From assembly GCA_049724395.1 (NCBI GenBank), contig JAUGWO010000047.1, positions 1-56,517 of the forward strand: DNA of 56,517 nucleotides, in the 5' to 3' direction. This DNA is from Spongospora subterranea f. sp. subterranea (Eukaryota). The notes beneath the pieces are model-generated. The model ran no database searches. It had not been told where the DNA came from and saw nothing but the letters and a program-made list of their open reading frames with translations. Positions within the stretch are counted from its first letter, which is position 1; each line of letters starts with the position of its first letter. The position numbers were made by a program, and so were the translations under genes. Of the stretch, positions 520-32,635 are shown piece by piece.

Positions 520-800
520 TGCGTCTGGCGAAACCGGCACTGTGGTTCTATCGTGGTTCTATCGTGGATTCACTCGTGGTTTCGGAGTTTCTGCGGGCTT
601 TATATATACCGTAGAACACAGAATATTGCGTCACACAGAATATTCCGTTTTTGACCCCGGATCACAGATATACTCGGTTTTTTAATCAATTTAAACACAA
701 AATTTGCCGATTTTAGAAGAAATTCAGCACACAATAACTCGTCTGTACCCAAGCACAGCTTCGCGGACATTTCGCAACCCTACGGACTCCGTGTCGGCAT

Positions 801-3437
801 ATGTCGGAATTTGAACAATTCAGAACCAATGGGTTTACCCATGGTGGAGCGGTATTCCGTGTTCCAGGTGATTCCAGCAGCGTGCAGAACAATTGCTTGT
901 TCGATTCAGTTCTTGCCTCCGGTCTGATGCCAGAGTGCAGCCCTTCTGAATTCCGAGCAATTGTGATAAAACGCCATTTAGCAGGTCAGCCAGGTCGCGA
1001 GACTGCCAACAAACTCTATTCGCTGTTCGCTCTTGGAACAGAAACAATCGACGATTATCTAAAAACGATGCTTAATACTCCAAAAATGGGGTCAGATTTC
1101 GAAATGGTGCTCATTGCGGTTCAGTTCGGCATCAATGTCGTGTCTTTTTCGAACGCATTGAGTCGTATTCACGTTTTTGATACGGTCGATTTCATTCTAA
1201 ACAAGACCGCTGGGTGTCAAAGTTTGATTCAGCATTTGCCTCCGAACCCCGAGACTGCTTTTGTATACCACCACCAATACCGACGACCTTTGACACCTCG
1301 GCCAAACGCGTCCCTCAACCATTTTCCCGTTAATGTTGACTGTATCGTTTTTTTCATCATCTCAAACTCGTTCTTACGTCAATATTGTTGACACGACGTT
1401 GGATGAGCGCGAGCAAACACGCAAGAGATCTTTTCCCCAGCAAATTTCCAACCAACCGACGAAAAAGGTCACAGTCGAACCAGTTGCGTCCAGTACTAAA
1501 ACACTTGTTCAAACAAAGTTCGCCTGGAATATTAAACCGTTCCAAAAAACGCGTCAACAGTCTAACAAGCCACAAACTCGTGACACAAAACCGAGGCAAT
1601 TTGCGGAGGCGAACGTCCAGTCGATGCGTGAATGGTGTTGCGACCATACCGCAAATCCGCAGGAGAAGCAACGATTGAATCAGATGATCGATGTCGGAAA
1701 AGTACGAGATTCTCATAGACTAAGTGTACTAGAAGCGCTTGGTATTTTTGAAGACTCTGTTGAACTGCACACTGTCATTAGTATTGTCGAAGGAATTGTG
1801 TTAAAATGCGAGTCGAATGCTGGAATCGGCGATATTCTGATACGTCTGAACTGTGTCGGCAGTCTGCAATCATCGTTGTGAAGCGGAGATCGCGAGAATG
1901 GAAGTGGGAGCACCGGGCTATGTCGGTCTTCTTCTATCATCATCCTGAACTTGGCAACGCAAACTTGTCGGTGTCTGCGCGGGCGCTCGGCCTGAACCCC
2001 AGCACACTTAAGAATTGGATCTACTCAAAGGCGCTTTCGCTCAAGTGGGTGCCATTCTTCTCTTCGTTGCAGGCCCCGGCCGTTGTGCGATCAGTGGTTC
2101 TCAAACACTTCTTTAAGTTTTATACTGACGTTACCGATGTCATTCCAAAATCTGTGCTGTCGGGAATAGAGGGATTGTCAAGAGCCCCATTGTCACAGTT
2201 GAAGTTTGGTTTCAACGGTGAAACCATACAAAAGATGGTTGCGGACGCCCGGAGCGGCGAAGTCAAGTTCATGCGCCGCGATGCCTCTCGAGTAGGGGTC
2301 AATGGAAAACTCGGGCGCATGCCCAAGTTTCCAATGGAAGAGCAGTTCGTCGACACATTCATTAGGGAGCGATGGAACAACGGCAATCCCTGTACTTTTG
2401 AACACGTTTTTAATGCTGTTCGGGCGCATTTTATCGGCTCGCTAGTATCGCCGGAGTTCAAGAAAGTAATCGCCAAGTCCAATAACCTCCGTATGTTTAT
2501 AACGCGCGCATTGATTCGATATCGGTGGTCGAATCGCAAAATGACGATATCGCAAACTATGCCGGTTGACTGGAAAACGCGTGCGGAGATTGACGCAGAG
2601 CGAATTTGCAAACTCTTCCGAAGAAAAAAAGTTCAAGTCGAGATAGCTGCAGACGAGACGTTCCTGCAGTTTCATGCGTCAAAAGATCGCTGCATCGCAC
2701 CTGTTGGTGTCAAGCGCACAGGAACGGTCAATCCTTTTGAGAAAGAGAAGTCGACTTTACTGTTGTTGTCGCTGCGGAGCGGCGATCTTCCCAATTGCTG
2801 CCTCATTTCGGGATCATGACTGGCAAATTTGGATGGAGATTTATTTCATGAGTGGAAAAAGTACAAGCAGTCGGTGCTTACTTTTAACAGCACCCACTGG
2901 ATGACCCAGTTAACCGCCGTGATGTTTCTTACGTTCATTGTGGAGTTTTTTCCAGGAAAGACGATCGGGATTGTGTGGGATCGATCTCACACCCATTTCG
3001 GCGATGTTGTTGGTTTTGCAGTACAATATGGAGCACCCTTCTGCGCAACTGACCATCGCCTTCATCGAGGCGGGTATGACGTCCGTCATGCAAGTTTGCG
3101 ACGTCTGTATTGATAAGCCACTCAAGCAGTATATCGAAGCAACGCTTATGGCGAATATCGCGATCAGCGTCTTGCAGGCGAGATAGGGCCGAAATTGCAG
3201 CCCGGCGAAAAATTCAAAGTTCCACGAGAAATCGTGTGGGGCTTTGTTGAACATGCCTTTCAACAGGTTAATCAATCCAATGACACTTCTCGTTGGATTG
3301 CTGATGGGTTCCGCAAATGTGGACAAGATCATTTCTGGTTGGATCGAAGCGCATTCAAAAATCATCTAGATTCATTAAGCGAAAATTCCATCTATGCCAA
3401 GATGGAAGCTGCCGCCAAGACGATGAACCTTCAATAG
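801..3437 (+). mobile_element. Frameshifted pogo/Tigger-like (DDE_1) transposase with N-terminal OTU-like cysteine protease domain
   Basis: Consecutive ORFs: RVPGD...NNCLFDSV and NHF (OTU-like); HTH-like ARALGLNPSTLKNW; CENP-B-like region; IAADETFLQF (D1); IVWDRSHTH (D2); GMTSVMQVCDVCIDKPLK (D3); IADGFRKCG. Several frameshifts and one stop near 3184. Confidence 0.75.
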
Positions 3438-12199: not shown

Positions 12200-12204
12200 T
12201 AAAA

Positions 12205-14325
12205 TTAAGCTCTAGTGGACCATTCATTAGGCGCGCTGCCAAACGGACTTCCGGCGGAAGTCATTGTGATCGTGGACTCCAATCTTTTCTCGTAGAAATT
12301 GAAATCGGGCACCTCCAAGTCCATTTGTAAATTGTCTGCAGTCATGTCTGGTGTCGGGCAAAACTTGAGCTCGATCTGCTTATTACACGAGATCACGTAT
12401 TCAATGGTACTTAATCTCAATATGTTTTGCCCGCTTAAAACTAGCTGTTCGCCGAGCGACCGCGATACAAATTGGTTGTCCTCGAAGATGATCATGGGCT
12501 TAAAGCTTCTTCTCCGAGCAACCCATTCCAGCAGATCGTTAAACGTCATGGCTTCTGTCATTACTTGTGATACGGCTATATCTTCGCCTTCCGTTGTCGA
12601 ACGGGCAACGCAGCACTGCTTTCTTAGATAGTAGGGAACTGGTCCTCCATTACATAAAATGATACCACCAGAAGTAGATTTGCGATCATTAAGACGCCAG
12701 CAAAATCAGCATCCGCGTAAATCTTCACTTGAGAGCTGCCTGCTTCTTTCTGAAAACAAACTCCACAATCCAATGTTCCTTTTGAAAACGCATGATTCTT
12801 TTCACCAGCTTTACATGGCCTAGCTTGAAATTGGATACAGCTCTGGCCGCAATTTTCAATGATATCAGGCCATGTCCGATACATCATGTGACCAACGCAC
12901 TGACGGTAAGGGAATTTTGCTTCTTGGTCTTCCGAGTCCGAGATCACGCCAGATGAGGTTTTGACCGGTTTACAATCCTTCATGTGGAAGCTCTCCAAGA
13001 TCTTATCGGCCTTTGTCTTTTGCGAAAGAGTGATTCGACGTTCAGCACGATTTGTTGTGATCAACATCCCCAACAAAAGTTTAGCTGCTCCCAGACCTTT
13101 GAGAGGAAATATGGACCCTATATCTTTCTTGAACTCGTCATACAATTCAAAATGTGTACAAGCACATAAGATGTCGAGTAGGATAGCGCCCATCATGTAT
13201 TCCCCTGGCAAGCATTGTTTTGAGAACACACAATTATCCATTGAGGCCACCTGATAGCCACATTGAAGCAGAATTTCCAGCAAATGCTTGTGCAGCTCAT
13301 TGCTCCATATAGATTTCTTCTTTGACTACTTGATGCTGAATGCCGACACGATGTCCATTTGGAAGATCTCTAGATTTTTGGCGGCAGCAATCTATATGAT
13401 GGCTCTAACTGCCGTTGTCGACGCAACTGGGCTGAAAGTCTTACGAAATAGTCTCAGTGAAGCCTCAGGCCACGAACCTGGCTTTTTATTTGACCACCTT
13501 ATGGTTCTCGTCCCGTTTGCGTTTGAAACCCAGCGACTATCCACCACCCTCCGGTTGGTAGGTCTCTGAACGACCGACCACATGTCATTCTTCTGCAGGG
13601 CTGATGACCTTGATCCATGGCCTCCTGCCAAAAATTTGGCCTCATCTGATTTAAGAGCCTCGACGCGGTTGCCAGGCTCGTCATCGGTACAGGCCAAGGA
13701 GAACATGGTTTGTTCATCGATAAATCGGGCTGGCTCTGACCGAACGCTTCTTGATGACCCAGGAGGATCTACAGATTTTGACTTGTCTTTAAAATCCGTT
13801 GACTTTCTTCGTCTTCATCTCCGCGTCGCCGCATCGTCTCCTCCATAAACTTGACGTCACGGCTAACACAACCTTGTGAGAGGACTCGTCCATGATTCTG
13901 TAGCCTTTCTTTTCAGTTGAGTATTCGATAATTACCCGTGCTGATCCAATTTACCGGCACCATCGATCTTGTACCAGGCCTTGCAGCCAAAAACGCGAAG
14001 ATGCTTAATACTGGGCTTACGCTGATACCATAATAATTCATACTGGGTCGCTGCCGTCACCAGAGCAGATGATATACAGCGGTGCGAATGTGTACCGCTG
14101 TCTGGACAGCTTCCGCCCAGTAAGCCTTTGACAAACCGGAGCCAATATCATTGTTCGTGTCATCTTAATAATGGTACGGTTCAGCCTTTCCGAGCCTTTA
14201 TTTTGCTGAAGTCGCCTAGACACAGTCAGCTCGCGCTTGACGTCATTCTTTTTCAAAAAACTATTGAAGGCACATGACGTATATTCTCCTCCATTATCGG
14301 AACGAAAGCGCCGAATAGGTCTTCC
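12205..14325 (-). mobile_element. Degenerate Ty1/Copia pol (INT-RT-RH)
   Basis: RRFRSDNGGEYT, QQNKGSERLNRTI, VVDSRWV, TFSPVA, LLGMLI, YADADFAG, FCPTPDMTAD, in the Copia order (integrase before RT). Confidence 0.9.
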
Positions 14326-14329
14326 AAGC

Positions 14330-15115
14330 AGGATCTCCACTGGAAACCCGATGCAAACGAGAATTCTTCGGAAGGTCAACTCATAGGCGACAGGGTTAAT
14401 AGTCCTAACAATGGAAAAACGGATATTTTTTCGGCAAGCTTATCACATGGCCGTTTCGATGGAAGAGATTCTGGAATCAGCCACACCTTATAAGGACGGT
14501 ATATTTCGGATGTGGGCGACGCTTAAAATCTGGGAAGCGTTTCATCGTATCAACCAATTTATGCAGAGTCATCTGGAGTTGCTTCTGTATTATGGAAATG
14601 AGAGATCATGTCGACCATAGCAGGATTGGGGAATACACCAGGGCTTGGTACATAAAAATCATGTCGACGTGGAACCCATAATTCGCAAAAATAGGACCCG
14701 ACGAAGTACGAAAAGAGTTTATAGGCGAATTCAGCCATTGGCAGAAAATCCACCAAATCGTTTTTGACGATAATTAATGAAACAGCGTAGCTAAGATTTT
14801 AGAACCTGGTTGACTCGTTCGGTTTGTCCATCCGATTCCGGGTGGAGCAAAGACGAAAGGTTCGGATCAATCTGCAATAACTTAGGTGGTGTTCCAGAAT
14901 TGAGACACAAATTGAGGGCCGCGATCGGAAACAATATCTCCAGGTAGACCATGAATTCAAATACATGAGCAAACACCAGCTTCGATAATTAAACAGAGGT
15001 AATCGATTCATGGCAAGGACTAAAATGAGCCATTTTTGTACGGCGGTTCATCATTACTAAAATGCTGTTAAACCTAGGGGAACAGGAAGTTTGATTACTC
15101 CTATAAAATCCATAG
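14330..15115 (-). mobile_element. Gypsy integrase 3' part (continuation of 18798-21330)
   Basis: HPESDGQTERVNQ, FLPMAEFAY, INPVAYEL; joins the 18798+ segment exactly through the duplicated ATAG. Confidence 0.85.
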
Positions 15116-15132
15116 CCCTGATGAAACTCCGT

Positions 15133-15370
15133 ATGATCTATAATATAGATCATTGGACGGAAACACCTCTCACATACTCAATTTTGCAATTACGCAGCCC
15201 ATATAAGAAAATAAGTTCAAGAATGGAATAATTCCTATATTTTGATGTTTTCAGAATAAATTCTTGGTCATTTTTCACTGCACAGTGAAGTATAGAAGTG
15301 AGTCGTTTTTGGAGCAAAATTCCACGGATTTTTATGAGGCAAAACCTGTATGATCTATATTATAGATCAT
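15133..15370. repeat. Two copies of the palindrome ATGATCTATA-W-TATAGATCAT (15133-15153, 15350-15370)
   Basis: Perfect 10-bp arms with a 1-bp spacer, read directly from the sequence. Confidence 0.95.
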
Positions 15371-15379
15371 AAGGACAAG

Positions 15380-18300
15380 TCATCGGTGGCGTAATCGCGT
15401 TGCTCGGACAGGAACGGATGGCGTTGGAACATTGTTCTGAACCTCAAGGTCTTCTGACTGGCCACTGGAGGCCTTGAACCCGATTCGACCCTGTCGCTGG
15501 ACGGTGACCCCGTTCGAAGGAAGAGAAACTGTTGGAGATGGTGCGCGTTGCATCGGCGACTCTAGGCGCCTATTCTCGTGGAATTTTGCCCAACATGTTC
15601 GTCTCGTGCCCATCTTTAGTTGAACGCAAAGCGGAACAGTGCATGTCTTGCACGACGCAGTTGTGTTAGCAGAGCAGACCAAGCACCTCAATTGCGAAGG
15701 CAGAGAAATTCTGTCATGTGGAAGATATTGAAGGCGCAGATTGACGCCGTCCGCATTGTTGTTAAACCAAGCCATCCTGTTTCGCTTAGGAATGCGGGGG
15801 CGTTCCACAAGCGATGCGTTGGGCACAGGGCGACCACCACTGGAACAGTTTTCTCTGGCCAGATCCTCTAAAGCGTTTACGAATTTTACAGATGGCGTCC
15901 AATCTTTAACAAACGCGTTTAAAGTCCTGAAAAACGAACCCTTCTCGTTTAAAGAGCCCTTGAGCTCTTTGTATGAAGAGAACGAAGCAATATTGCTCTC
16001 GATCTGGAGCAGCCGATAGAGGTAATGCGCATTCAGTTGAGCTGTAAAAATAAATCTGATCGCAATAAAGGCCAATGGCGAGAGGGATCGGAAGTCGACC
16101 TTCATGTTTTTCAACACGCGGCTATTGACGTCTTGACCTCCTTTTCCTGCAATGTTCCAGATATCCACAGGTACCGGGACCAAGTCATGAGCAGGTGGCA
16201 GTACATTCGTCGAAGATTGCAGCGCCAGTATGGCTTTTGATAGTTCTCGCCATTGTGTAAAGGTATGCAGATCGACAGCATGACCGTATTGGTCTGGTGT
16301 GAGGGTGACGTTGCCCGTTGCAAAAGGCGCGACGTGTTGCTGACACCATCGCGTCAACATGGACCGATAAGTAACGAGCGTTTCCTCCGAGAATTCCACA
16401 AATGTCACGCTGATGATATTTCCCATGTCGGCAACTATATGTGCAAGGTGGCAACAATTTGTGACAGCGGCATGATGAAGAGCCTGCGCGCGATACGAAG
16501 TAGTCCAAATTAAAACCTTGAACAAATCGGATCCAAACGTTGTCACAAAAACTGACTGGTTAGTAAGCCCAGTCGCCGCTGCTGTAACTCGTCGCTCTTC
16601 CGCTTCGCGAATCGTGGCCGGCGAGCACATGGTCTTGATCTCCAGGACACACGCCACATCAACTTTACCCTCACCACGATGAATAACCGCTGCGCCATCG
16701 ATCGAAGTTCCAATAAAAGACTGTTCTGCATGGCCGTCCGGGGTTGGGTTGCGAAACCTTAAAAGCCCTCGTTCTACAATAGGTTCAACGATTTGGAAGA
16801 CACCTTCTCCAGCGCGATTCCTCAAGAAAACAGGCAGAGCCTGTAACACGAAGGATTCGTTGACGGATCCCATTTTGAGATACGTGTTATGAATCGGCTT
16901 CATAAACCACTTCTTCATCAACTCACGCCTAACATTGTTCTCAATGTTCGGAGGTGTCGTCCGCAACCGATCGATTAACATCTGCTTTGCACCCGTACTG
17001 GGAAGCCCCCTGGAAATGAGAAGATTTTTCAAATCTTTGTGTCGCATTTCTGCAAGAGTTCCGATTCGGTTGGCAACTCAAGGAACCTGTCCAAATTGGC
17101 TGCAATTCCCACATTGCTCAAAATATCGTCCTCTTGACTCGAAACAGTACAGGCTCTGCATGCCGATAGGAGAACGACAGACACAGTGCTGGTAACTACA
17201 GGAAGAGCGGCACGATGAACATGCCATTCGCACCCACCCTGCACAGCAGTGATCTGCTCAACGTTCGCGTCAATCTGCAACGCGATCAGAGACGGGGCGG
17301 GCTGTGCCACTCTGTAGGAGCCTGCACGCTTAGCCTTGTAAAACCACGTGCCGACGTGGTTACTTAATGTAGTAATCATCGTGCAGACGTGTCCTTTTCC
17401 AGATCGATACGCCAACGCGAAAAGCTCACGACCAGCGATATAGCGACGAGCAACGTAAAGGGCCTTGGCGCCAACTTCAGGAATGGCCATGCGAGATCCA
17501 GTTGCGGCAACCGTTCCAAACGTGAACGGAAACCACTTAACTCTGACGAACGTGCCGACGATCTCAAATCCACAGGAGAGTACCCATTCCACAAGCTCTG
17601 GGACGCCAGTATCCACGATCCATGGCAATCAAGTTTCCAAGGGACTTGACTTGTTCCACTAGATCCACCTGGTGCATCCACATCATCAAGATTTTGACAA
17701 CAGTGCTGTAGTTCTCGCCGCGTCCGATCAATCTCATGCCCAGCTGAAGGCCTGTGCAAATCGAAACAACGCCGGTTGAAACAGGGCCAAACGCCTTCTT
17801 GGGGTTGTTCAGTCTTGTCAATCCAAGCCGTTCGCACAAAAAAGATGCCAGGCGGTAATGGTCATCATCTACTGAGAGCCTGGTGGTCTTTTGTACATAT
17901 CCGATCTTGGACGTGAATTTCGTAAAATTTCGCTCCAAATCCCGGATTACCGTGTTTTCCGAGAAGGGAGAATCCCACCTATCTTGCTCAGCGTCGCCAG
18001 AATTATTTCGACGACCAGAGCGATTCAGCGCTGTCATCACCTTCTGGAACGGGGCCTTGTCCAATGTACCTGCCAATGGAAACAAGTTCCGATTGAACGG
18101 ATCCCAAAATTTCGTTGGCGTGGCCTTATATAACGACAGGGTCGCCAAAACTCTGATAAAGTGGGCCATGTCACTGCCCGATACCTTCGACCCCGAGTTG
18201 GTCATTCCAGCATCAGTCAGCTGAAACAACTGTGACAATATAGGCTCCAAGCACATGTTGAATACCTCACTAATGCCGACGCTACTGTTGGTCCCAATCT

Positions 18301-18553
18301 TCAAGTGCTCGCGAACCCGGGCACAGACGGTGCGAATTTCCGTTCGCGCTTCGCTGAGCAGAAGGCCGTCAGCTGGTTCCAACGAAATTTTGATTTTTGG
18401 CATTCGAGTGGGATTGAGAATCGACCACTCAGCAGATTCATTTTCATCATTAATGTCATCATCCAGGTCCTCTTCACCTTCCTCCTCGTCCTCAAATACC
18501 GCTAAGTGATCGGTTGCGTTGGCCTCAAGCAGCAGTTCCTGCAAGGTCGTCAT
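15380..18553 (-). CDS. piggyBac-type DDD transposase (~1,057 aa) with inserted SAP + YqaJ/lambda-exonuclease domain and C-terminal Cys-rich domain; two compensating frameshifts
   Basis: Acidic N-terminus; LSVDDD (D1 ~17868); MDRGY (D2 ~17619); IVGT; QGGCEWHVHR...TST; SAP HKDLKNLLISRGLPSTGAKQMLIDRL; GSVNE, GLL, GTSIDG, LEIKT, YRAQ; PVDIWN..GKGGQD (D3 ~16131); NAHYLY; RCLVC...CKTCTVPLC...CWAKFH. ORFs 17564-18553 and 15380-17047 share a frame and are bridged by 17029-17628. Confidence 0.85.
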
Positions 18554-18694
18554 TCCGAGTCAAACAAGAGTACGAGGGTTGGGTAAGCTCGGGTCGCGCA
18601 GTTTCTGGTTTTCTCAAGCACGGAAATCATTTTTACTGTGAGAAAAACTTTTTTTAACGCAGATATTCCGCCCTGAAAATCAGGTAAAAAAATT

Positions 18695-18784
18695 CCATAT
18701 GATCTATATTATAGATCATATGGCATTTCCTGGTGGGAGCCCAAAATAACCCAAAAAGTGCGTATGATCTATAATATAGATCAT
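18695..18784. repeat. Two copies of the same palindrome (18699-18719, extendable to 18695-18723; 18764-18784)
   Basis: CCATATGATCTATA-T-TATAGATCATATGG and ATGATCTATA-A-TATAGATCAT. Confidence 0.95.
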
Positions 18785-18797
18785 ATGGCCATCAGGG

Positions 18798-21330
18798 ATA
18801 GAAATCGATGACCATGGGTGAGAGGGGATGGGAAGCGGGAGTGATAGCCCCGAGGGTTTGCGGCGAAGAAGTTTCGGACGCGCACAGAAGTCCCAAGATT
18901 AAACAAAAGAGGTAAGCATTTTCGCAAGCATGGCCAGATAAAATTGCGAGCAATTAAATCGAAGGTTTTGTTAATGCCAAAATGTCCCGTCAATGGAGAT
19001 TCATGACAGGATGAAAGGATATCCAAACGCCTAGCTGCATCATCGACCAATTCAACCAAATTTTAGGGTTTTTAGGTAGCTCTTTATCGTAAAACTCATC
19101 ATTTAATTCCGCCTGCGAGAGTAAAACACCCCAGGATGTAATCAATCTGCGTGTTCTTTGGACACAATAGCACCGATTGCGTAATCGGACGCATCTGCTT
19201 CGACAATAATGTCCATGTCCGGATCAAAATGGCGAAAAATAGGCGCCGATACAAAAGCTGACTTTAAAGTCTGAAATGAAGCATCAGCACTAGCGGTCCA
19301 CTGATTGATGGCAGCTTTCTTCTTTGACGAAAAAAGTGGGTTGGTGAAGCGTGAACAATTTTGGGTAAATCCACGATAGAATTTCGTAAAACCCACAAAC
19401 GATTGAAGCCCTTTGACAAAATTCGAAATTGTTCAAGATAAATTGCTGAAATACGTTCTGGATCCATGTGTAAGCCACTAGAAGTCAAGCGGAACCCCAA
19501 AAACTCAACCTCGAAGAAATGGAATACAGATTTGCTCAGGTTGGCGAAGAGGTTGTGCTTTCGAAGAATTTGCAGAACAGTGTGAACGTGGTCAACATGT
19601 TCAACAGCGTCCGGAGGAGAAAGTAAAATTTTCGTTCAAATACACAACAACGAATCGATTAATGCAGTCTTGTAGAATGTCGTTCAAAAATCGTTGAAAA
19701 CAAGCGACTACATTGGCCAAGCCAAAAAGCAACACCACATATAAAAACAAACCGAATTTTGTCCTGAATGCGGTTCTCCGCTCACCGCCTGCCCCGATGC
19801 GAACGAGTTTGTATGCGCTTCGAAATTCGATTTTAAAAACACTCGTCCGGACATGACGCTAGACAAAATGGAACTGATAAGCGGAAGAGGGTAGCGATTC
19901 TTGATTGTGATGGAGTTTATTCGTGGATAATCAACACATTCGTGGATAATCAGCACACAGCCGGAGAGATTTGTGCTTTTGCAACAAACATGACCGGGAA
20001 ACTGCATGATGATGAAGAAGGTCGAATGAATTCCTTACGCAAATGATGATCAATGTATTCGAGAAGAGCGGTGGATTCATGACTCGACAATTGGTAGAGG
20101 GGGGCCGAAGGTGGATTGGAGCCAGGTTGGGGATCAATAGGACAGTCGTAGTTGCGATGCGGCGGTAGGCAAACGGCTTTTTGTACGTCAAAAACATCGG
20201 CGAATTGAGAATACTCCTCAGGAAGGACCTCCACGGTGGAAATCTCGGATTCAGATGAAGCCACCACAGAAAGAGCAAACTGTATTGCCTCAACGATGGG
20301 ATCGGTTCGCGTCGATAGAGAGTGCATTACGCAAAGAAGCGGAGAGTGCGGATCGCCAATCGATAACTGGGTAAGCTGAAACAACCATGAATATCCCAAC
20401 AGAGGAGAGAAAGATAAATTGTCAGCTATGAAAAGGGATGCTCTGTTTGAAAACCCATCGACCCGTAAATTCATGAGTTCCGATTTTTTTCCAAGAGTAA
20501 CTTGATGACGATTGAAACTGAATACAGTGAGCGGCGTCCTAGTTGTCTTGATAGGATATGATGCTTGGCGGCGAAGAGAGCGTCCATTAATGCACAAGCC
20601 CCACTATCCAGTAGAACAATTGAGGTGGATATGAAAGACCTTTGTGGGGAATAAACCGAACCGTTGAAAATGCATGAAGACGCTGTATCAACGTGGTTGG
20701 AATTTAGGGTTTGGTGTATTTGTCTTTTTAAAGCCAAACACTGATCGGGCGGATGTGGGTCTTTACAGATAAACATAATTTGAGCTGTCGCCGGCGCTCC
20801 TTCTCCGTATCGTGCCGCCCCAGCCAAACTCCCCACCTGACAATGTCATGGTCGAGCGTCGTCCGAAGACCTCGCGGGCCAGGGGGTGACAGCTGAAAGT
20901 GGTGGGGGCGCTCCTTTGGGCATCGAATGGGCTATTGCGTCAGCTGTGCGGAAAGCGGCCATTTTTTTTAGTGAAACGATGTGGTCGTTGTGACGAGCTG
21001 AACCAACGACGAAAACGGATTTTTCATTCCTTCAGCCAAAATAAGCATACGCTGCAAATCCAGTGTTAAGCCTTGACGAAACTAAAGCATCAACGACACT
21101 GTGTCCAATCCACGGCCTGTGCAAGCAGGCGGAATTCGTTCCAGTAGCGTCCCAGATGGTCTCCCAATATCAACCGAGGCAAGGAATCGGCCGCTTTGAT
21201 GGAACGATCCGGATAAAAAAAAGCGATGGTGAACACCGTTAGGAAAACCGGGAGATCGTGCAATGTTGAGCACGAAGAAACGCTGTCACGAATCAGTCTT
21301 ATCGATGTCAACTTAACGTTGTACCATACA
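18798..21330 (-). mobile_element. Degenerate Ty3/Gypsy 5' part (gag-PR-RT-RH-INT zinc finger)
   Basis: YWNEFRLLAQAVDW gag, LLDSGA protease, PPHRNYDCPID, KNRYPLPLI, VEADASDYAIG, GHFGINKTF; same family as 7389-10140. Confidence 0.9.
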
Positions 21331-21907
21331 GTTTATTAAACTGGTGTCTTGTCTCGCCGCGGGGAGAAAAAACACCACCGTTTATTAAATATCATGCAGG
21401 TACGGTTCAATGTACGGTTCCTGATATGGATCAGCGAAAAATCGCTGATATAGAGGTCCAGGCCATGGTCTGTGCAGGTCTTTCCCATTGTCTACAGGAG
21501 TTGGTTTTGGATAAAGATCTGTCCATTGTAAACGTATAGGTCCCTGATTTTTATAAGGAGAATGGTTCTGTTTTCAGAGTCGAGTGATCGAAGCATCGAA
21601 ATCCTCTGTCATGACCCAGCAGGGATTCACCAGTGTGACCGGAAGGTAATGAGCCTGTATTGTACGTGACCATGTCCAATTTGAATAACGATTTTGATTT
21701 GACAGAACTGGAGCTTTATAATGGGGTCAATTTCCTCCGCAACAAACGAAACGGGACCGAGAATTATCAAAAAATCTTGTGGATCGATTTTGCGTTGCGG
21801 CCAATTCCTTATGTCGATGCAGAAGATACGTGTACGCTCTTAGTCCGATCATCATCAATCTATTTTGCAACAGAACCTTTTGATCGTCGCCAGTCTACAT
21901 CTCATCA

Positions 21908-22759
21908 ATGGCGAGCCCGATATTGAATGAGCTAATAGCAATTGTAGTCTTCATCTGTTTCGGTTTGGCCCTCTTCATCTACGTACTTTGTCAACAGAAA
22001 AAGCTCACTCATTACTGGATTATGCTTCACGGTCTGGCGGTGATTACCAATTTGGTGGCACTTGTGTGCACGATTGCAAATATGTTCGTCCTGGGCCGTA
22101 CTGAGAGTGAATGCCTTCTTCTTCATCGAATCGGGGGCACAGCATTTGCTGCTGTTCAGGGGATGATGCGGATATACTTTTCAGGGCGAGTCACTATGCT
22201 GAACAAGATGGAGTCGAGAATCAGCCAAGGAATCGACTATTTCGTCTTGTTTCTCTCCTGCCTCACGGTGCCGGTCGGCGCCATCTACCTGAACTTAGTG
22301 ATGACCACTATTGTAATCCCCTTCATCGAGCTTTGCGTGTATCTTCCTAGCGACCAACTGCAATATTTAACAACTGTATCCCGGTTAATTATCGACATTA
22401 GCATCAACGTCCGTTTTTTCAAGTATGTTATGACCCGGCATAGCGCTGCCCCCAGCGTCAAAACCACCACTACCGCAGGTTTTCGTGACACCAAACCCAA
22501 AGCGACTTCTTCGCAGAACACTTCTGGTCACAACCGATTGATCAACATCACAATTGGATTTTTTCTAATCCAGACAATGTTCGAAGTATTTACCACATTG
22601 ATGGTGAAAGGATTGACGCCGATAACTGTCGACCGATATGTGCCTGTGTATACATATGAAATGGCTTGCAATGCTGCGTCGACCGTTTGGCCCATGATTT
22701 TGGTGCATTTCTTGAAGAAAACGTCAACGTTCAGCACTTTGCGTTCCAATCGCACGTAA
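21908..22759 (+). CDS. 7TM GPCR-like receptor, copy 1 (283 aa, intronless)
   Basis: Seven hydrophobic segments; Cys at the top of TM3 (TESEC) and in ECL2 (IELCVY); polar Thr/Lys-rich ICL3; basic C-tail. Confidence 0.8.
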   Translation: MASPILNELIAIVVFICFGLALFIYVLCQQKKLTHYWIMLHGLAVITNLVALVCTIANMFVLGRTESECLLLHRIGGTAFAAVQGMMRIYFSGRVTMLNKMESRISQGIDYFVLFLSCLTVPVGAIYLNLVMTTIVIPFIELCVYLPSDQLQYLTTVSRLIIDISINVRFFKYVMTRHSAAPSVKTTTTAGFRDTKPKATSSQNTSGHNRLINITIGFFLIQTMFEVFTTLMVKGLTPITVDRYVPVYTYEMACNAASTVWPMILVHFLKKTSTFSTLRSNRT

Positions 22760-23829
22760 TGGATAAACTCAAATCGTTTCCTGCTCTGAGTTTTGTCATG
22801 AAATTGTGGGAAAATCGAAAAATTGTTGTTACAACGGAAGTTCATCAAGTTCTGAACCTGGTAGCACTATTCGGGTTCATCACGATTGTTGGTTCTTCCA
22901 CAAAACGAATGGGATGTTTGCCGATTCGGCATCAAAACGGCATTTTGTAAAGTAATAGGCAACGTCAATGACCACAGCAGTAGTATCGGACACAATATAT
23001 GTAAAGAAATATCGAGAGGGAATTGTAACCTAATACGCAACGTAAATGGCCACAGCAATACTATCGGATACTGATTACACTCTCTGAACTGACTACTCTG
23101 AGATGATCGAGACGGCATTATAACCTACCCCGCACCGTCAATGGCCACCTTATCGGATATGGAATATGTAACCAGATGATCGAGAGCCATTGTAGCCTCA
23201 TACTCATTAACACTATATTTGATTGCTTCTACGGTGTCAATTCATAGTTCCTGTAATGTTTACATAGTCACGTCGCATCATGAAAAGAAATCTGAATGCT
23301 GATCGCCACTGATCTTTTGATTCTTGTTTTGGAAATGATGTTCCTCCTTGTGCGATGATTCAACGCTTTTGCTGTTGCAGAGGTTTTCTTGTGCTGGTGC
23401 CTATAAAGGGTGTTGGTTTCGTAAAGAACCTCCAATAGAATTTAATAAGATTTCCATTCATAAAAAAATGGAGAAACAGTATTGGTCTGATCCGTTGCGT
23501 AGAAGTCATTGGGCAACAACCTCATAAGTTGTGATGCTGGCCGATCAGAAACAGTCAGATTTACACGACCTTTGGTTAAACTGAGATAAACTGGAGTGAT
23601 TAGGCAACCTAACATTGCTTTGGGCAAAATTGAGATACGACGATGTTTTCCCTGATAGATATAAGTGAAGTTGCATCACTGGTTTGTATACTATAGCTAA
23701 TGGACAAGAACTCATGTGTCAGCAGATCCAAGCTTCCTATCGTTGGGATCGAAGAATCGGGTCTCCAACATTCAAAGGATGTCTGCCGCGGCTTCAGTGA
23801 AGGCAGCCCACAATTTCCTCTCTATACTG

Positions 23830-26300: not shown

Positions 26301-28024
26301 GGTGGATTCAGGAAAGGGGCAAGTCAAACTGCTGATCGTCCTTGACTACCCGAGTTATGGTTCATGCAGAGGCGGAGACGTTGTGTCCAAGCTGCACAAA
26401 TCTCGCCATGTGCCTGCACGTCGACCGATGCGAGATTCGCCGTAAAGGCATGATAAGATTCGCGATTTTCTCATCAAGGCGTGCTGCACCAAGGCCTCTA
26501 CCGTTAAAGCTGAAGCTCATGCAGACCGCGACCGCTATTAAACGAACCCAGAACTCCTCGCCGATCTTCGTGATCGCGGACCCGCAGCTCCGAATGGCAA
26601 CATCCACCTGACTTATATTGAGACCATGACCGTCCATATTCAAGCGCTACTGTCTCGTGCTCGCCCAGTGCCCTATGCAAAGCCGACTTCGGTCACCAAG
26701 GCCGCGATTCGCGCCTGCTTGACGCCAGGGAAATTGCGAAAAACAGGAAATACGCGCAAGCTTTTTTGGCCTCGTTCACACTTGTAGTCTTTACTACAGG
26801 AGGGATTCCACTTTCTTCAGTCGAAGCGGTGGCTGAAGCGTCTTGACGTAGTAGGCGCTCTCTCGAACAACGTCTTCTAGATTTGAGCCTCTTACTCTTT
26901 GACACAGTAAACTCAATAAACAATTGAATACGTCCAGATGTGGGTTTTGTTGTGACTAGAATGCCCTCAAAGGTTGCTGATGCATAACTGATAGAACATA
27001 GACTAATCAGTTCGAGTTAAAGCTGGAATCTCGATTCGAATGCATGCTTGTCTTTTTGTAATGAGGGCTCCTGTTCCTTGAAGCCAAAGGCGTTGAACAA
27101 CCGAGAGAGTATAAGCACCAGGAGGTCAAATGATGGTTGAATTAACTTGAAGATCATACCGTCTGGTCATGTACAAACGATATTTCCCAGACTATGGCAA
27201 ATGTTTGGTCATATGAGTAAGGAAAGAGGGTTTCAATCGAGTCCAAGCCAGTATGGTTAATGTTATTAAACGTGACAACAGTCAAGATCAATGGGATACC
27301 AAGCCGTTGGTGGAGTCTTTGGTGTAAAATCCATTTCTACATAAAGTAATCGCTGATGATAAAGGTCCGCGATTGGTTCCGATTGACGACGAAATGAGAA
27401 GTGACAAAAGACACGATTGCGATTAAATTTTGCGATAGCTTGAATTGTTTCAATCTAATCCATTACGACCAGAACACACCAAAGGGTAGCGGATGGATGG
27501 CTGATGACGATACTGTACAAGCGTCATTGATTTTCTATCGGAGCGCAACGGTGTGTAATCATCCAATACATGGATTCGCTGTTTCTGGCACAATCAATGA
27601 TCGCCTTATCCTGTCGGCAAGCCCCGAATCAGCCAGAGAGCCCCTTCTTGTCTGTATGTACCAGCAAATCCGCATTGGTTGAATTGTTTGAATCTTGACT
27701 GACCAACAGCGATTGAGGTCTCCGCGCGAACTGCACACAGCGTGAAGAAAAGAAAAACATGAAACCGATTGAAGTCAAAATAACAATGATCAACCCAGCA
27801 TGTGAGGACAGAACTGGAGCTTTAGTGTGGAGAACAACGATGTTCTTCGCAACAAACAAAATGGGGACCCAGAATCTTGAAAAAACCAAGTGGATCGATA
27901 TATATTACGTTGCGATCAATTCCATTATGTCGTTGCAGAAGATACGCGTACGCTCTTAGTCCGATCATCATCAATCTATTTTAGAACAGAACCTTTTGAT
28001 CGTCGCCAGTCCATATATCAATCA

Positions 28025-28884
28025 ATGGCAAGCCCGATATTGAATGAGCTAATAGCACTTGTAGTTGCCATCTGTTTCGGTTTGGCCCTTTTTATCTACG
28101 TACTTTTTCAGCAGAAAAAACTAACTCGTCATTGGATTATGCTTCACGGTCTGGCGGTGATTACCAATTTGGTGGCAATTCTGTCCACGATTGCAAATAT
28201 GTTCGTCCTGGGCCGTACTGAGAGTGAATGCCTTCTTCTTCATCGAATCGGGGGCACAGCGTTTTCTGCTGTTCAGGGAATGATGCGGATATACTTTTCA
28301 GGGCGAGTCACAATGCTGAATAAGATGGAGTCGAAAATCAGCCAAGGAATCGATAATTTCTTCTTGTTTCTCTCCTGCCTCCTAGTGCCGTTCGGCGCTA
28401 TCTACATGAACATAATGATGACCACTATGGTAATCCCCTTCATCGAGCTTTGTGTTTATATTCCTACGATATTCTGCAATATTTAACAACTGTATCCCGG
28501 TTAATTATCGACATTAGCATCAACGTCCGTTTCTTCAAGTATGTTATGACCAGACATCGCAATACCGACACCGCCAAAACCACCACTTCCCCAGGTTTTC
28601 GTGACACAAAACCCAAAACAACTGCTTCACAGAACACTTCTGGTCACAACCGATTGATGAACATCACAATTGCATTTTTCCTAATTCAGACAATATTCGA
28701 AATATTCACCACCTTGATGGTGAAAGGGTTGACTCCGATAACTGTCGACCAATATGTGCCTGTGTATGCATATGAAATGGCTTGCAATGCGGCATCGACC
28801 GTTTGGCCCTTGATTTTGGTGCATTTTTTGAAGAAAAGGACAACGCTCAGCTCTCTGCGCGTTCTAATCGCACGTAAAAGATAA
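28025..28884 (+). pseudogene. 7TM GPCR-like receptor, copy 2 (1-nt deletion near 28466)
   Basis: Paralog of copies 1, 3 and 4, split into ORFs 27890-28486 and 28450-28884 at ATTCCTA^CGATATT. Confidence 0.8.
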
Positions 28885-29290: not shown

Positions 29291-30126
29291 AGATGATCGA
29301 GCCGGCATTATAACCAACCCCGCACCGTCAATGGCCACCTTATCGGATACGAAAATGATCGAGAGCCATTGTAGCCTCATACTCATTAACACTATATTTG
29401 ATTGCTTCTGCGGTCTCAAATAATAGTTCCTGCAGTTGTTTACATGGTCACCTCGCATCATGATCGACACTGTCTCATTTTTTATTGTTCTTGTTTTGGA
29501 ATGTTGTTTTTCGTGGTGCGATGTTTCACCGCTTGTGCTATCGCTTCTGCTGGTGTCAATAACCGATCTTGGTTTCGTAAAGTCCCTTGAAATAGAATTT
29601 AGTAAGTTTTCGATTCATCAAAAAGGGGAGAAACAGTATTGGTCTGATCCATTGCGTAGTCATTGGGCAACAACCTCACTACAACAATATCAAAATCAAT
29701 ATCTTTTTCTGGCACAATCAACCATCGCCTTATCTTGTCGGCAAGCCCCGATTCAGCCTGAGAGTCCCTTCTTGTCTGTATATAACTGCAATTCCACATT
29801 GGTTGATTGATTGAATTGTGGATGACCAACTGCCACGAACTGCAAACAGCGTGTGAAGAGAAGAACATGAAACCGATTGTAAGTCAAAGAACACATGATC
29901 AACCAACACGTCAAGACAGAACTGGAGCTTTAGTGTGGGGAACAACAATGTTCTCCGCAACAAACAAAATGGGGACCCAGATTCATCAAAAAATCAAGTG
30001 GATCGATATTATGTTGCGACCACTGTATCATGTCGATACAGAAGATTCGCGTACGCTCTTAGTCCGTCAATAATCAATCTATTTTACAACAGAATCTTTT
30101 GACCGTCGCCACTCTATATCTCATCA

Positions 30127-30984
30127 ATGGCAAGCCCGATATTGAATGTGCTAATAGCACTTGTAGTCGCCATCTGTTTCGGTTTGGTCCTTTTTATCTA
30201 CGTACTTTTTCAGCAGAAAAAACTAACTCGTCACTGGATTATGCTTCACGGTCTGGCGGTGATTACCAATTTGGTGGCAATTCTGTCCACGATTGCAAAT
30301 ATGTTCGTCCTGGGCCGAACTGAGAGTGAATGCGATATTCTTCATCGAATCGGTGGCACAGCGTTTTTTGCTGTTCAGGGAATGATGCGGATATACTTTT
30401 CAGGACGAGTCACGATGCTGAATCAGATGGAGTCGAAATGCAGCCAAGGAATCGACTATTTCGTCTTGTTTCTCTCCTGCCTCCTGGTGCCGCTCGGCGC
30501 TATCTACATGAACATAGTGATGGCCACTATGGTAATCCCCTTCATCGAGCTTTGTGTTTATATTCCTGACCACATTCTGCAATATGTATCAACTGTATGC
30601 CGGTTAATTATCGACATTAGCATCAACTTCCGTTTCTTCAAGTATGTTATGACCAGACATCGCAATACCGACACCGTCCAAACCACCACTTCCCCAGGTC
30701 GTGACACAAAACCCAAAACAACTGCTTCACAGAACACTTCTGGTCATAACCGATTGATGAACATCACAATTGCATTTTTCCTAATCCAGACAATATTCGA
30801 AATATTCACCACCTTGATGGTGAAAGAAATGACGCCGATAACTGTCGACCATTATGTGGTTGTGTATGCATATGAAATGGCTTGCAATGCGGCATCGACC
30901 ATTTGGCCCATGATTTTGGTGCATTTTTTGAAGAAAACGACAACGCTCAGCTCTCTGCGCGTTCCAATCGTACGTAATATATAA
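30127..30984 (+). CDS. 7TM GPCR-like receptor, copy 3 (285 aa)
   Basis: Intact paralog with the same 7TM and Cys pattern. Confidence 0.8.
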   Translation: MASPILNVLIALVVAICFGLVLFIYVLFQQKKLTRHWIMLHGLAVITNLVAILSTIANMFVLGRTESECDILHRIGGTAFFAVQGMMRIYFSGRVTMLNQMESKCSQGIDYFVLFLSCLLVPLGAIYMNIVMATMVIPFIELCVYIPDHILQYVSTVCRLIIDISINFRFFKYVMTRHRNTDTVQTTTSPGRDTKPKTTASQNTSGHNRLMNITIAFFLIQTIFEIFTTLMVKEMTPITVDHYVVVYAYEMACNAASTIWPMILVHFLKKTTTLSSLRVPIVRNI

Positions 30985-31777
30985 TCTCAAATCGTTTCCT
31001 ACTCTACATTGTGGGACAATCGAAAAATTGTTGTTACAACGGAATTTCAAGTTTTGAACCTGGTAGCACAGCAATTGTTCGGGTTCATCACGATTGTTGG
31101 CTCTTCCACAAAACGAATGGGATGTTGGCTAATTCGGCATCAAACCGGCGTTCGTAAAGTAATACGCAACGTGAATGACCACAGCAATACTATCGGATAC
31201 TCCTACAATATGTGACGAGATTGTCGAGAGGGAAGTGCAACCTAATACGCAACGTCAATGACCACTGCAAAAATATCGGATACAATTTCCTCTCTAAACT
31301 GTTGCGACCAGACCGGATATGTTGATCGCAAACGGGGACGATAGCCAGAGAACTGTGCAATATGTAAAGAGATTATCGAGAGGGAATTGTACCCAACTAC
31401 GCAAATTCAATGACAATAATATCGGATACTGATTACACTGTCTGAACTGATTACACTCTTTGAACTGATTACACTCTCTGATGAACTGATTACACGCAGT
31501 GTTGAAGAGAAGAACATGAAACCAATTGTAAGTCAAAGAAAACATGATCAACCCAGCACGTCAGGACAGAACTGGAGCTTTAGTGTGGGGAACAACAATG
31601 TTCTCCACAACAAACAAAATGGGGACCGAGAATAATCAACAGATCATGTGGATCAGTATTGTGTTGCGAATAATTCCATTATGTCGATGCAGAAGATACG
31701 CGTACGCTCTTAGTCCGTTAAATATCAATCTATTGTGGAGCAGGACCTTTCGATCGTCGCCAGTTTATATCTCATCA

Positions 31778-32635
31778 ATGGCGAGCCCGATATTGAATGA
31801 GCTGATAGCAATTGTAGTCGCCATCTGTTTCGGTTTGGTCCTTTTCATCTACGTACTTTTTCAGCAGAAAAAACTAACTCGTCAATGGATTATGCTTCAC
31901 GGTCTGGCGGTGATTACCAATTTGGTGGCACTTGTGTGCACGATTTCAAATATGTTCGTCCTGGGCCGAACTGAGAGTGAATGCGTTATTCTTCATCGAA
32001 TCGGGGGCACAGCGTTTTTTGCTGCTCAGGGAATGATGCGGATATACTTTTCAGGGCGAGTCACAATGCTGAATAAGATGGAGTCGAAATGCAGCCAAGG
32101 AATCGACTATTTCGTCTTGTTTCTCTCCTGCCTCCTAGTGCCGTTCGGCGCTATCTACATTAACATAGTGATGAACACTATGGTAATCCCCTTCATCGAG
32201 CTTTGTGTTTATATTCCTAACGACATTCTGCCATTTATAACAACTGTATGCCGGTTAATTATCGACATTAGCATCAACGTCCGTTTCTTCAAGTATGTTA
32301 TGACCAGACATAACAATACCGGCACCGCCAAAACCACCACTTCCCCAGGTTTTCGTGAAACCAAACCCAAAACAACTGCTTCACAGAACACTTCTGGTCA
32401 CAACCGATTGATGAACATCACAATTGCATTTTTCCTAAGCCAGACAATATTCGAAATATTCACCACCTTCATGGTGAAAGGAATGACGCCGATAACTGTC
32501 GACCATTATGTGGCTGTGTATGCATATGAATTGGCTTGCAATGCGGCATCGACCGTTTGGCCCATGATTTTGGTGCATTTTTTGAAGAAAACGACAACGC
32601 TCAGCACTCTGCGCGTTCCAATCGCACGGGAGTAA
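31778..32635 (+). CDS. 7TM GPCR-like receptor, copy 4 (285 aa)
   Basis: Start set at MASPIL by homology with the other copies; the ORF-track extension from 31544 is not conserved. Confidence 0.8.
   Translation: MASPILNELIAIVVAICFGLVLFIYVLFQQKKLTRQWIMLHGLAVITNLVALVCTISNMFVLGRTESECVILHRIGGTAFFAAQGMMRIYFSGRVTMLNKMESKCSQGIDYFVLFLSCLLVPFGAIYINIVMNTMVIPFIELCVYIPNDILPFITTVCRLIIDISINVRFFKYVMTRHNNTGTAKTTTSPGFRETKPKTTASQNTSGHNRLMNITIAFFLSQTIFEIFTTFMVKGMTPITVDHYVAVYAYELACNAASTVWPMILVHFLKKTTTLSTLRVPIARE

Follow-up and report, generated by a model that had tools for sequence, protein, structure and literature searches.

We analyzed a 56,517-nucleotide stretch of Spongospora subterranea f. sp. subterranea DNA (assembly GCA_049724395.1, contig JAUGWO010000047.1, positions 1 to 56,517; hereafter "the window"). 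At positions 15116-18797, the window contains a complete transposon: a frameshifted copy of a cut-and-paste element of the piggyBac superfamily, with a lambda-exonuclease-like domain set within the core defined by its three catalytic aspartates (DDD triad; D1, D2 and D3).

Ends, target site and gene of the element

The features of the element and its insertion site are listed below in forward-strand order. Residue counts refer to a set of 41 aligned sequences introduced in the next section, and P0014 is an intact relative of 1,074 amino acids (aa).

15112-15115 (+): ATAG, one copy of the target-site duplication (CTAT on the gene strand), at the gene's 3' end; the flanks are in frame
15116-18797: complete element, delimited in the sequence by CCC...GGG termini with ATAG flanks outside
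15116-15123 (+): 8-bp terminal inverted repeat CCCTGATG, at the gene-strand 3' end; pairs with 18790-18797
15132-15154: subterminal palindrome 1, 21 bp perfect at 15133-15153; bp 17-39 from the end
15349-15371: subterminal palindrome 2, 23 bp perfect
15380-18553 (-): transposase-exonuclease gene, about 1,057 codons in three frames, 38-42% identical to P0014
15578-15685 (-): C-terminal cysteine-rich zinc-binding domain (CxxC...CxxC...C...C...H), conserved in alignment A2; aligned by the family profile to residues 529-574, at the C-terminus of Myotis piggyBat
16130-16132 (-): catalytic D3, in WN...KGGQD; D in 41/41
16240-17270 (-), limits approximate: lambda-exonuclease (YqaJ-like, PD-(D/E)xK) domain, between D2 and D3
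17226, 17214, 17193-17185, 16858, 16705-16697, 16642-16634 and 16486 (-): exonuclease motifs W, R, TST, E, S-x-D, E-x-K and Q, respectively
16961-17056 (-): SAP DNA-binding motif within the exonuclease domain (Pfam PF02037, E 2.2e-7)
17618-17620 (-): catalytic D2, in DRGY; D in 41/41; aligns with piggyBat DNYY
17867-17869 (-): catalytic D1, first D of SVDDD; D in 41/41; aligns with piggyBat SLDE
18695-18723: subterminal palindrome 3, 29 bp perfect
18763-18785: subterminal palindrome 4, 23 bp perfect; bp 13-35 from the end
18790-18797 (+): 8-bp terminal inverted repeat CATCAGGG, at the gene-strand 5' end
18798-18801 (+): ATAG, the other copy of the target-site duplication as read in the sequence, with in-frame flanks
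18802-19432 (-): insertion site, a degraded Ty3/gypsy-type pol relic with RNase H and integrase zinc-finger parts; the integrase resumes below 15111

The element begins and ends with 8-bp terminal inverted repeats (TIRs), with ATAG just outside each, which confirms the ends assigned in an initial annotation of the locus; the ATAG flanks and four subterminal palindromes are features additional to that annotation. The palindromes are perfect over 21-29 bp, share a common core and lie two per end, with bp 17 and bp 13 as the starts of the outer pair. No other perfect odd-centered palindrome in the whole window has arms of 9 bp or longer. Ends of the piggyBac superfamily combine subterminal palindromes with TIRs that start with C, usually as CCY, and we find both here, with TIRs shorter than the 12-19 bp that is the norm in piggyBac elements (PMC5381638; here and below, papers are cited from excerpts). 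In T. ni piggyBac, a dimer of cysteine-rich domains binds a palindrome at bp 17-33 (PMC7351741), and by analogy palindrome 1 is the likely site for the cysteine-rich domain of the present protein. The 56,517 nucleotides of the window contain no second copy of the element.

Because the insertion interrupts a host reading frame, the 4-bp duplication is cleanly proven. When a single ATAG is counted, both flanks share one frame (...WSSIS on one side, MDF on the other), and we take the two to be halves of a single gypsy integrase motif. The right flank matches Pfam Integrase_H2C2 (E 1.6e-11) and RT_RNaseH_2 (E 4.7e-13), and the left-flank pieces tested (14562-15111) gave no integrase match. The chance of two flanks sharing a 4-mer in this window is about 0.004. 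The insertion lies within an integrase gene of Ty3/gypsy type, and the duplicated target is ATAG (read as CTAT on the gene strand) instead of TTAA. Since the element's gene pieces are free of in-frame stops, unlike the broken retrotransposons around it, the insertion is probably younger than the surrounding host retrotransposon.

A scan of 31 of 64 parts of a metagenome collection identified at least one further locus, L001, whose protein is 39% identical to that of the window copy. At the one end of L001 available, ATCAGGG is followed by CTAT, so that CTAT lies at the gene's 3' end in both elements checked, the window copy and L001. L001 also carries two palindromes of other sequence in like positions (1824-1846 and 2029-2053). 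Across L001 1824-2073, these palindromes have the TA ends and central ATA-W-TAT seen in the window while their arms differ, a pattern that may help to explain how DNA is read by the cysteine-rich domain. The L001 gene is also frameshifted. Canonical piggyBac elements use TTAA, with rare single-copy exceptions that include ATAG (PMC5381638); the element studied here departs from that target, with ATAG on both flanks and CTAT at L001.

A tblastn search with P0014 aligned the gene at 38-42% identity in three segments (P0014 residues 57-347, 347-477 and 522-1018), and the gap in this alignment was bridged. The gene occupies three frames because of two apparent frameshifts, near 17600 and near 17065, and its three pieces (315, 176 and 560 aa) contain no in-frame stops. 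The Spongospora copy itself is probably inactive. The initial annotation had listed piggyBac landmarks, two frameshifts and an unusual spacing of the catalytic residues, and each of these held: the motifs all lie on the minus strand in the order given, both frameshifts were located in the P0014 alignment, and D1-D2 and D2-D3 span 83 and 496 codons as counted from the sequence. For T. ni piggyBac, residues D268, D346 and D447 give spacings of 78 and 101 (PMC7351741). Canonical piggyBac-like elements have about 100 residues between D2 and D3 and a small three-stranded insertion domain, and the interval of 496 codons here, against 101, falls outside that pattern. The window copy has one residue more between WN and K, just before D3, than most relatives. 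It also has, at its C-terminus, the cysteine-rich domain typical of the piggyBac superfamily.

A nuclease domain shared by a protein family

All residues expected of a lambda exonuclease/YqaJ active site are present in the window copy between D2 and D3: the catalytic E, D, E-x-K and Q, together with an N-terminal W-x3-R phosphate pocket, their equivalence to lambda exonuclease residues being assigned by motif order and partly from family motifs. Pfam YqaJ matches the window's gene pieces weakly (E 0.093, below cut-off) and DDE_Tnp_1_7 does not match them, so we base the identities of both transposase and exonuclease on relatives, profiles and folds.

We searched for relatives with HMMER, using as query the gene's last frame, which holds the nuclease and excludes D1 and D2. 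At 50% clustering and an E threshold of 0.001, the search recovered 455 representatives; the list covered 150 of them, and the conservation counts below are drawn among these listed matches. From the 43 proteins of at least 850 aa we aligned 36 (alignment A1), omitting three near-duplicates and four with missing motifs; in these 36 relatives, D2 and D3 are 488-834 residues apart. A broader residue survey covered 69 proteins of at least 600 aa, with near-duplicates and the seven omitted from A1 among them. Fifty-nine of the 69 span D2-D3; every one of the 59 carries the nuclease segment, and 54 retain all ten residues checked. Finally, we removed three N-terminally truncated sequences from A1 and added seven more and the window copy, giving 41 sequences. 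In P0014 numbering, the catalytic D258, D341 and D833, the nuclease residues W470, R474, S635, D637, E658, K660 and Q711, and W825 are identical in 41/41, with E588 in 40/41 and N826 in 39/41.

These counts bear out the annotation's two central proposals, that the locus encodes a single piggyBac-type DDD transposase with nested YqaJ and SAP modules and that the YqaJ catalytic residues are intact: both active sites are conserved across the family, the YqaJ motif set in 40-41 of the 41 sequences. The SAP module fared differently. It does split the exonuclease domain (E 2.2e-7), but it is not a fixed component, and since only 18/36 relatives in A1 have it we rejected SAP as a defining part of the family. 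Extra small domains with B-box and C1-like Pfam matches occur in some relatives within A1, among which P0076, P0104, P0078 and P0142 were singled out.

Trees of the transposase and nuclease parts gave correlated distances (Mantel r 0.69, a value reached in 0 of 2,000 permutations; 41 sequences) and share 13 well-supported splits, out of 23 and 18. By this sequence comparison, the transposase and nuclease halves evolved together. The annotation had named a separate nested insertion absent from other copies as a refuting outcome, and we find the opposite. We therefore regard it as highly improbable that the joined protein does not exist and that the YqaJ segment is a nested element of its own or a product of misassembly. 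That reading draws on the two frameshifts that break the window copy. Against it, the segment lies in one open frame in all 59 relatives spanning D2-D3, the window copy and P0014 align colinearly along its length, neither frameshift falls at an insert boundary, the insert lacks flanking repeats, and the two parts have correlated trees. A one-off nested insertion of YqaJ was rejected as largely refuted by the relatives and by colinearity.

We next turned to profile and structure comparisons. The A1 profile matches piggyBat (E 2.9e-6) at three sites flanking the insert, with weak matches to T. ni piggyBac, mimivirus R354 and LHK exonuclease. An AlphaFold2 model of P0014 (predicted local distance difference test score (pLDDT) 81.4; predicted template modeling score (pTM) 0.74) retrieved piggyBac, piggyBat and Tn5 on top in Foldseek, then lambda exonuclease, and also viral YqaJ-type nucleases. 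In VIA-align, the model superposes on piggyBac (PDB 6x67) with Z 26.0 and a root-mean-square deviation (rmsd) of 3.9 over 380 residues (model 88-924), on piggyBat with Z 24.4 and on Tn5 with Z 16.0. Residues 458-797 superpose on lambda exonuclease (chain 1-225) with Z 15.1 and rmsd 3.3 over 202/225 residues; a PD-(D/E)xK fold, whose absence the annotation had set as a further test, is thus recovered in the P0014 model with lambda-exonuclease topology. D341 and D833 bracket the exonuclease segment, and the order in the model is a beta-stranded insertion (strands 392-434), the exonuclease and the D833-bearing helix. When the 200-residue core of the window copy itself was modeled (pLDDT 85.4), its Foldseek matches were weaker, again with lambda exonuclease first (E 3.9e-3). 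The RNase H-like DDD fold of the piggyBac superfamily is seen in the P0014 model, whose best match is 6x67, and the triad is present in 41/41. Overall, the predicted architecture is a piggyBac fold with a lambda-type exonuclease set after the beta-stranded insertion domain.

Other searches outlined where the family occurs. Plasmodiophora brassicae is the host named for 2 of 30 relative clusters looked up, and the nearest Atlas cluster is eukaryotic (score 0.97; 56 members, phylum given for 2). Relatives were not found in viral contigs, plasmids or phages at the sensitivity used, nor in prokaryote genomes as searched with two peptide patterns only. Among NCBIfam models, none of the piggyBac-like or IS1380/IS701 type matched in the 36 relatives, and weak matches were to lambda exonuclease (2/36) and IS1182 (1/36, E 0.061). 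PHROGs matched a RecE-like family in 4/18, and a profile of the exonuclease core only had mimivirus R354 as its sole, weak match (E 0.1).

A proposed role for the exonuclease

The TIRs, the palindromes, the 4-bp CTAT duplication, the domain order and the conservation of both active sites are the observed part of a mechanism that we favor tentatively, at somewhat less than an even chance: after piggyBac-type excision, the exonuclease would resect the 5'-phosphorylated donor flanks, and homologous repair would restore the donor copy. The annotation had raised such homology-directed restoration as a possibility, and we find it plausible. During piggyBac transposition, the 3' ends are nicked and hairpins are made that reach four bases into the flank, leaving complementary overhangs that allow scarless closing of the donor; Y439/N440 contact the hairpin, and the target-DNA channel is lined by the insertion domain (PMC7351741). 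Relative to D3, W825/N826 and G830 stand where piggyBac has Y439/N440 and G444. Because the aromatic residue and the asparagine are kept (W825 in 41/41, N826 in 39/41), the hairpin chemistry is probably kept as well.

By analogy, the DDD transposase would likely excise and integrate in the manner of piggyBac, at CTAT: the cysteine-rich domains would bind the palindromes, the DDD site would nick the 3' ends and form hairpins, and the donor flanks would be released with complementary 4-nt 5' overhangs. The second domain, placed near the flank/target channel, may then bind 5'-phosphate flank ends as lambda exonuclease does, the simplest substrate being the pair of 5'-phosphorylated flank ends freed by excision. 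Resection of these flanks 5' to 3' would destroy the overhangs needed for seamless closing and leave 3' tails. Such tails could recombine with the sister chromatid or homolog, so that the element is copied back and its number grows.

We assume, from motif order and family motifs, that R474, D637 and K660 correspond to lambda exonuclease R28, D119 and K131; the invariant R474 and K660 are likely equivalents of R28 and K131. Lambda exonuclease digests 5' to 3', with R28 and K131 essential (PMC5758106), and a dead mutant is R28A/D119A/K131A (PMC12804191). The separate acquisition of lambda-type nucleases by the ISL2EU and KolobokE transposons suggests that such a nuclease gives transposons a general benefit.

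An alternative use of the same activity would be on the transposon's own DNA: the exonuclease could trim the 4-nt 5' overhangs that remain once the hairpins open, or flaps left mismatched when strand transfer takes place at an asymmetric target. We consider this possible though rather unlikely. Hairpin opening does yield 4-nt overhangs (PMC7351741), inverted or near-cognate integrations would give mismatched flaps since CTAT is non-palindromic, and short trimming works without a ring-shaped enzyme. Canonical piggyBac, however, integrates without trimming (PMC7351741); moreover, the duplication here is perfect, and CTAT is on the gene strand in both elements checked.

TnsA cuts the non-transferred strand for Tn7. 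The PD-(D/E)xK domain might likewise replace the hairpin step and cut the non-transferred strand, giving a single chain with two nucleases, and in support the domain sits in the insertion-domain position beside flank DNA and is conserved as strongly as the DDD triad, as expected for an essential step. We judge such a replacement improbable given that the hairpin-contact residues are retained (W825 in 41/41, N826 in 39/41), that the nearest folds are the end-dependent exonucleases lambda and LHK, that the putative 5'-phosphate-binding arginine is invariant, and that P0142 has the DDD triad without an intact nuclease site.

The position of the domain also bears on a role outside excision, in which target or host DNA would be the substrate of the nuclease and SAP: they might bind or widen existing ends or nicks and thereby locate insertion sites, or degrade competing free ends. 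The insertion domain of piggyBac lines the target channel (PMC7351741), and SAP, B-box and C1-like modules vary in the insert as targeting add-ons might, but the precise duplication of 4 bp at a fixed tetranucleotide indicates that strand transfer proceeded in the ordinary way, into intact DNA, and a role on target or host DNA appears quite unlikely to us. A related suggestion in the annotation, that the exonuclease enables non-TTAA targeting, finds no support: in T. ni piggyBac, target choice comes from contacts made by the protein, and the overhang at the end is dispensable for it (PMC7351741). Since piggyBac targeting is independent of the overhang, altered protein contacts best explain CTAT, and the nuclease is not required.

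Several points weigh against donor-flank resection by a conserved nuclease. The donor-flank steps of binding, hairpin formation and resection are themselves inferred. Lambda exonuclease works as a toroid according to a PDB title, and as a trimer according to the title of a cited paper, whereas piggyBac is a dimer; because of this mismatch between ring and dimer, processive resection is not assured. Among the 59 surveyed proteins spanning D2-D3, five lack a key residue (P0001, P0102, P0137, P0142 and P0156), and P0142 keeps its DDD triad with a degenerate nuclease site. Our queries contained the exonuclease, so that its conservation is partly ascertained, yet D1 and D2, which lie outside the main query, are invariant. 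Nuclease-free sisters were not recovered in a word-based protein search, an insensitive method that gave 2 matches; other word-based protein searches, also insensitive, gave 1 and 11. Five pairs of supported splits conflict at deeper nodes between the two trees. The CTAT preference comes from two elements only, L001 with just one end.

If the tentative mechanism above is true, the family could provide a natural link between transposition and homology-directed repair. The fullest version of this view seems doubtful to us as a whole: an ancient, widespread and undescribed piggyBac-type branch in protists and other eukaryotes, with a working nested exonuclease, would insert in fixed orientation at CTAT and destroy its own seamless donor ends, forcing homologous repair and hence net copying.

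Neighborhood and comparison with known systems

The window is eukaryotic DNA of about 44% GC with many decayed retrotransposons. One of these, a decayed copia-type retrotransposon at 12200-14440 (-) with many stops and frameshifts, lies beside the gypsy relic (RVT_2, E 2.3e-7; rve, E 2.5e-4). A gene for a multi-pass membrane protein of about 280 aa, without a Pfam match, is present in at least four tandem copies, at 21884-22759, 27881-28486, 30103-30984 and 31532-32635 (+); Atlas links it to eukaryotic clusters and to a serpentine-receptor cluster (0.91-0.92). Three diverged 43-nt repeats, spaced 78 and 95 nt, lie downstream of the first of these genes (22933-23148). Two open frames at 738-2819 (+) have no Pfam match; judged by eye from their motifs, the first may be related to an OTU-like protease and the second may resemble the start of a pogo/Tc1-mariner transposase. 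At 50311-51015 and 55298-56020 (-), 5 kb apart, lie two open frames of about 235-240 aa that closely resemble each other, the first without a Pfam match.

piggyBacX is a divergent piggyBac group of Repbase, which enters our comparison as a class label. The RepeatMasker/Dfam label PiggyBac-X has been given to repeats of Plasmodiophora brassicae (bioRxiv 10.1101/2025.07.30.667784), a species that holds members of the nuclease-carrying family, and we consider it about evenly balanced whether PiggyBac-X, known here as a label, is this family. A definition of PiggyBac-X was not found in the excerpts of PMC7805219 or in the supplements of PMC8969392, and "piggyBacX" occurs in no main text searched. 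We found no description of a piggyBac with a nested exonuclease in the literature searched, which left most subscription journals and Repbase beyond reach.

Two other transposon groups carry a related nuclease. The lambda-like nuclease of KolobokE lies downstream of the transposase, in elements with RR...YY termini and TTAA targets (PMC9587614); the CCC termini, the ATAG flanks and a nuclease inside a piggyBac-fold core led us to reject this identity. ISL2EU, of the PHIS group, also has a YqaJ exonuclease, but as a separate open reading frame next to an IS5/Harbinger-like transposase with THAP and with a 2-bp duplication (PMC4122938); it was rejected on the basis of the single open reading frame in relatives and the 4-bp duplication here. 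Both papers name the exonuclease, and the excerpted passages give no test of its role (PMC9587614, PMC4122938). In the present family, the nuclease shares a chain with a piggyBac-type enzyme of well-known chemistry and structure, so its role is directly testable.

The domain shares with lambda exonuclease (Red-alpha; PDB 1avq, 3slp and 6m9k) and LHK exonuclease (3syy) a fold over about 200 of 225 residues (Z 15) and the active-site motif set. Unlike lambda exonuclease, it is a predicted nuclease, embedded in a transposase and split by SAP, and the element has no annealing protein to partner it.

The closest relationship is to piggyBac itself, which has been paired with bacterial IS1380-like elements (PMC5718144). 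Compared with T. ni piggyBac (PDB 6x67/6x68) and Myotis piggyBat (PDB 9c0f), the protein has the same fold (Z 26.0 and 24.4), a DDD triad, an acidic disordered N-terminus, a beta-stranded insertion, an aromatic-N..KGG.D helix and a C-terminal cysteine-rich domain, and the element has CCC termini, a 4-bp duplication and a palindrome at about bp 17. It differs from both in sequence (about 15% identity) and in its D1 and D2 motifs, DDD and DRGY in place of LDE and DNYY. Further differences from piggyBac are about 400 extra residues between D2 and D3 that hold the lambda-exonuclease domain and often SAP, an asymmetric CTAT/ATAG target in place of TTAA, and TIRs of 8 bp against 12-19 bp (PMC5381638). 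The element thus belongs to the piggyBac superfamily by fold but departs from its canonical members in two respects, the TTAA target and the spacing of the catalytic core. As piggyBac is prized for seamless excision from TTAA, a relative with an asymmetric target could give orientation-fixed integration.

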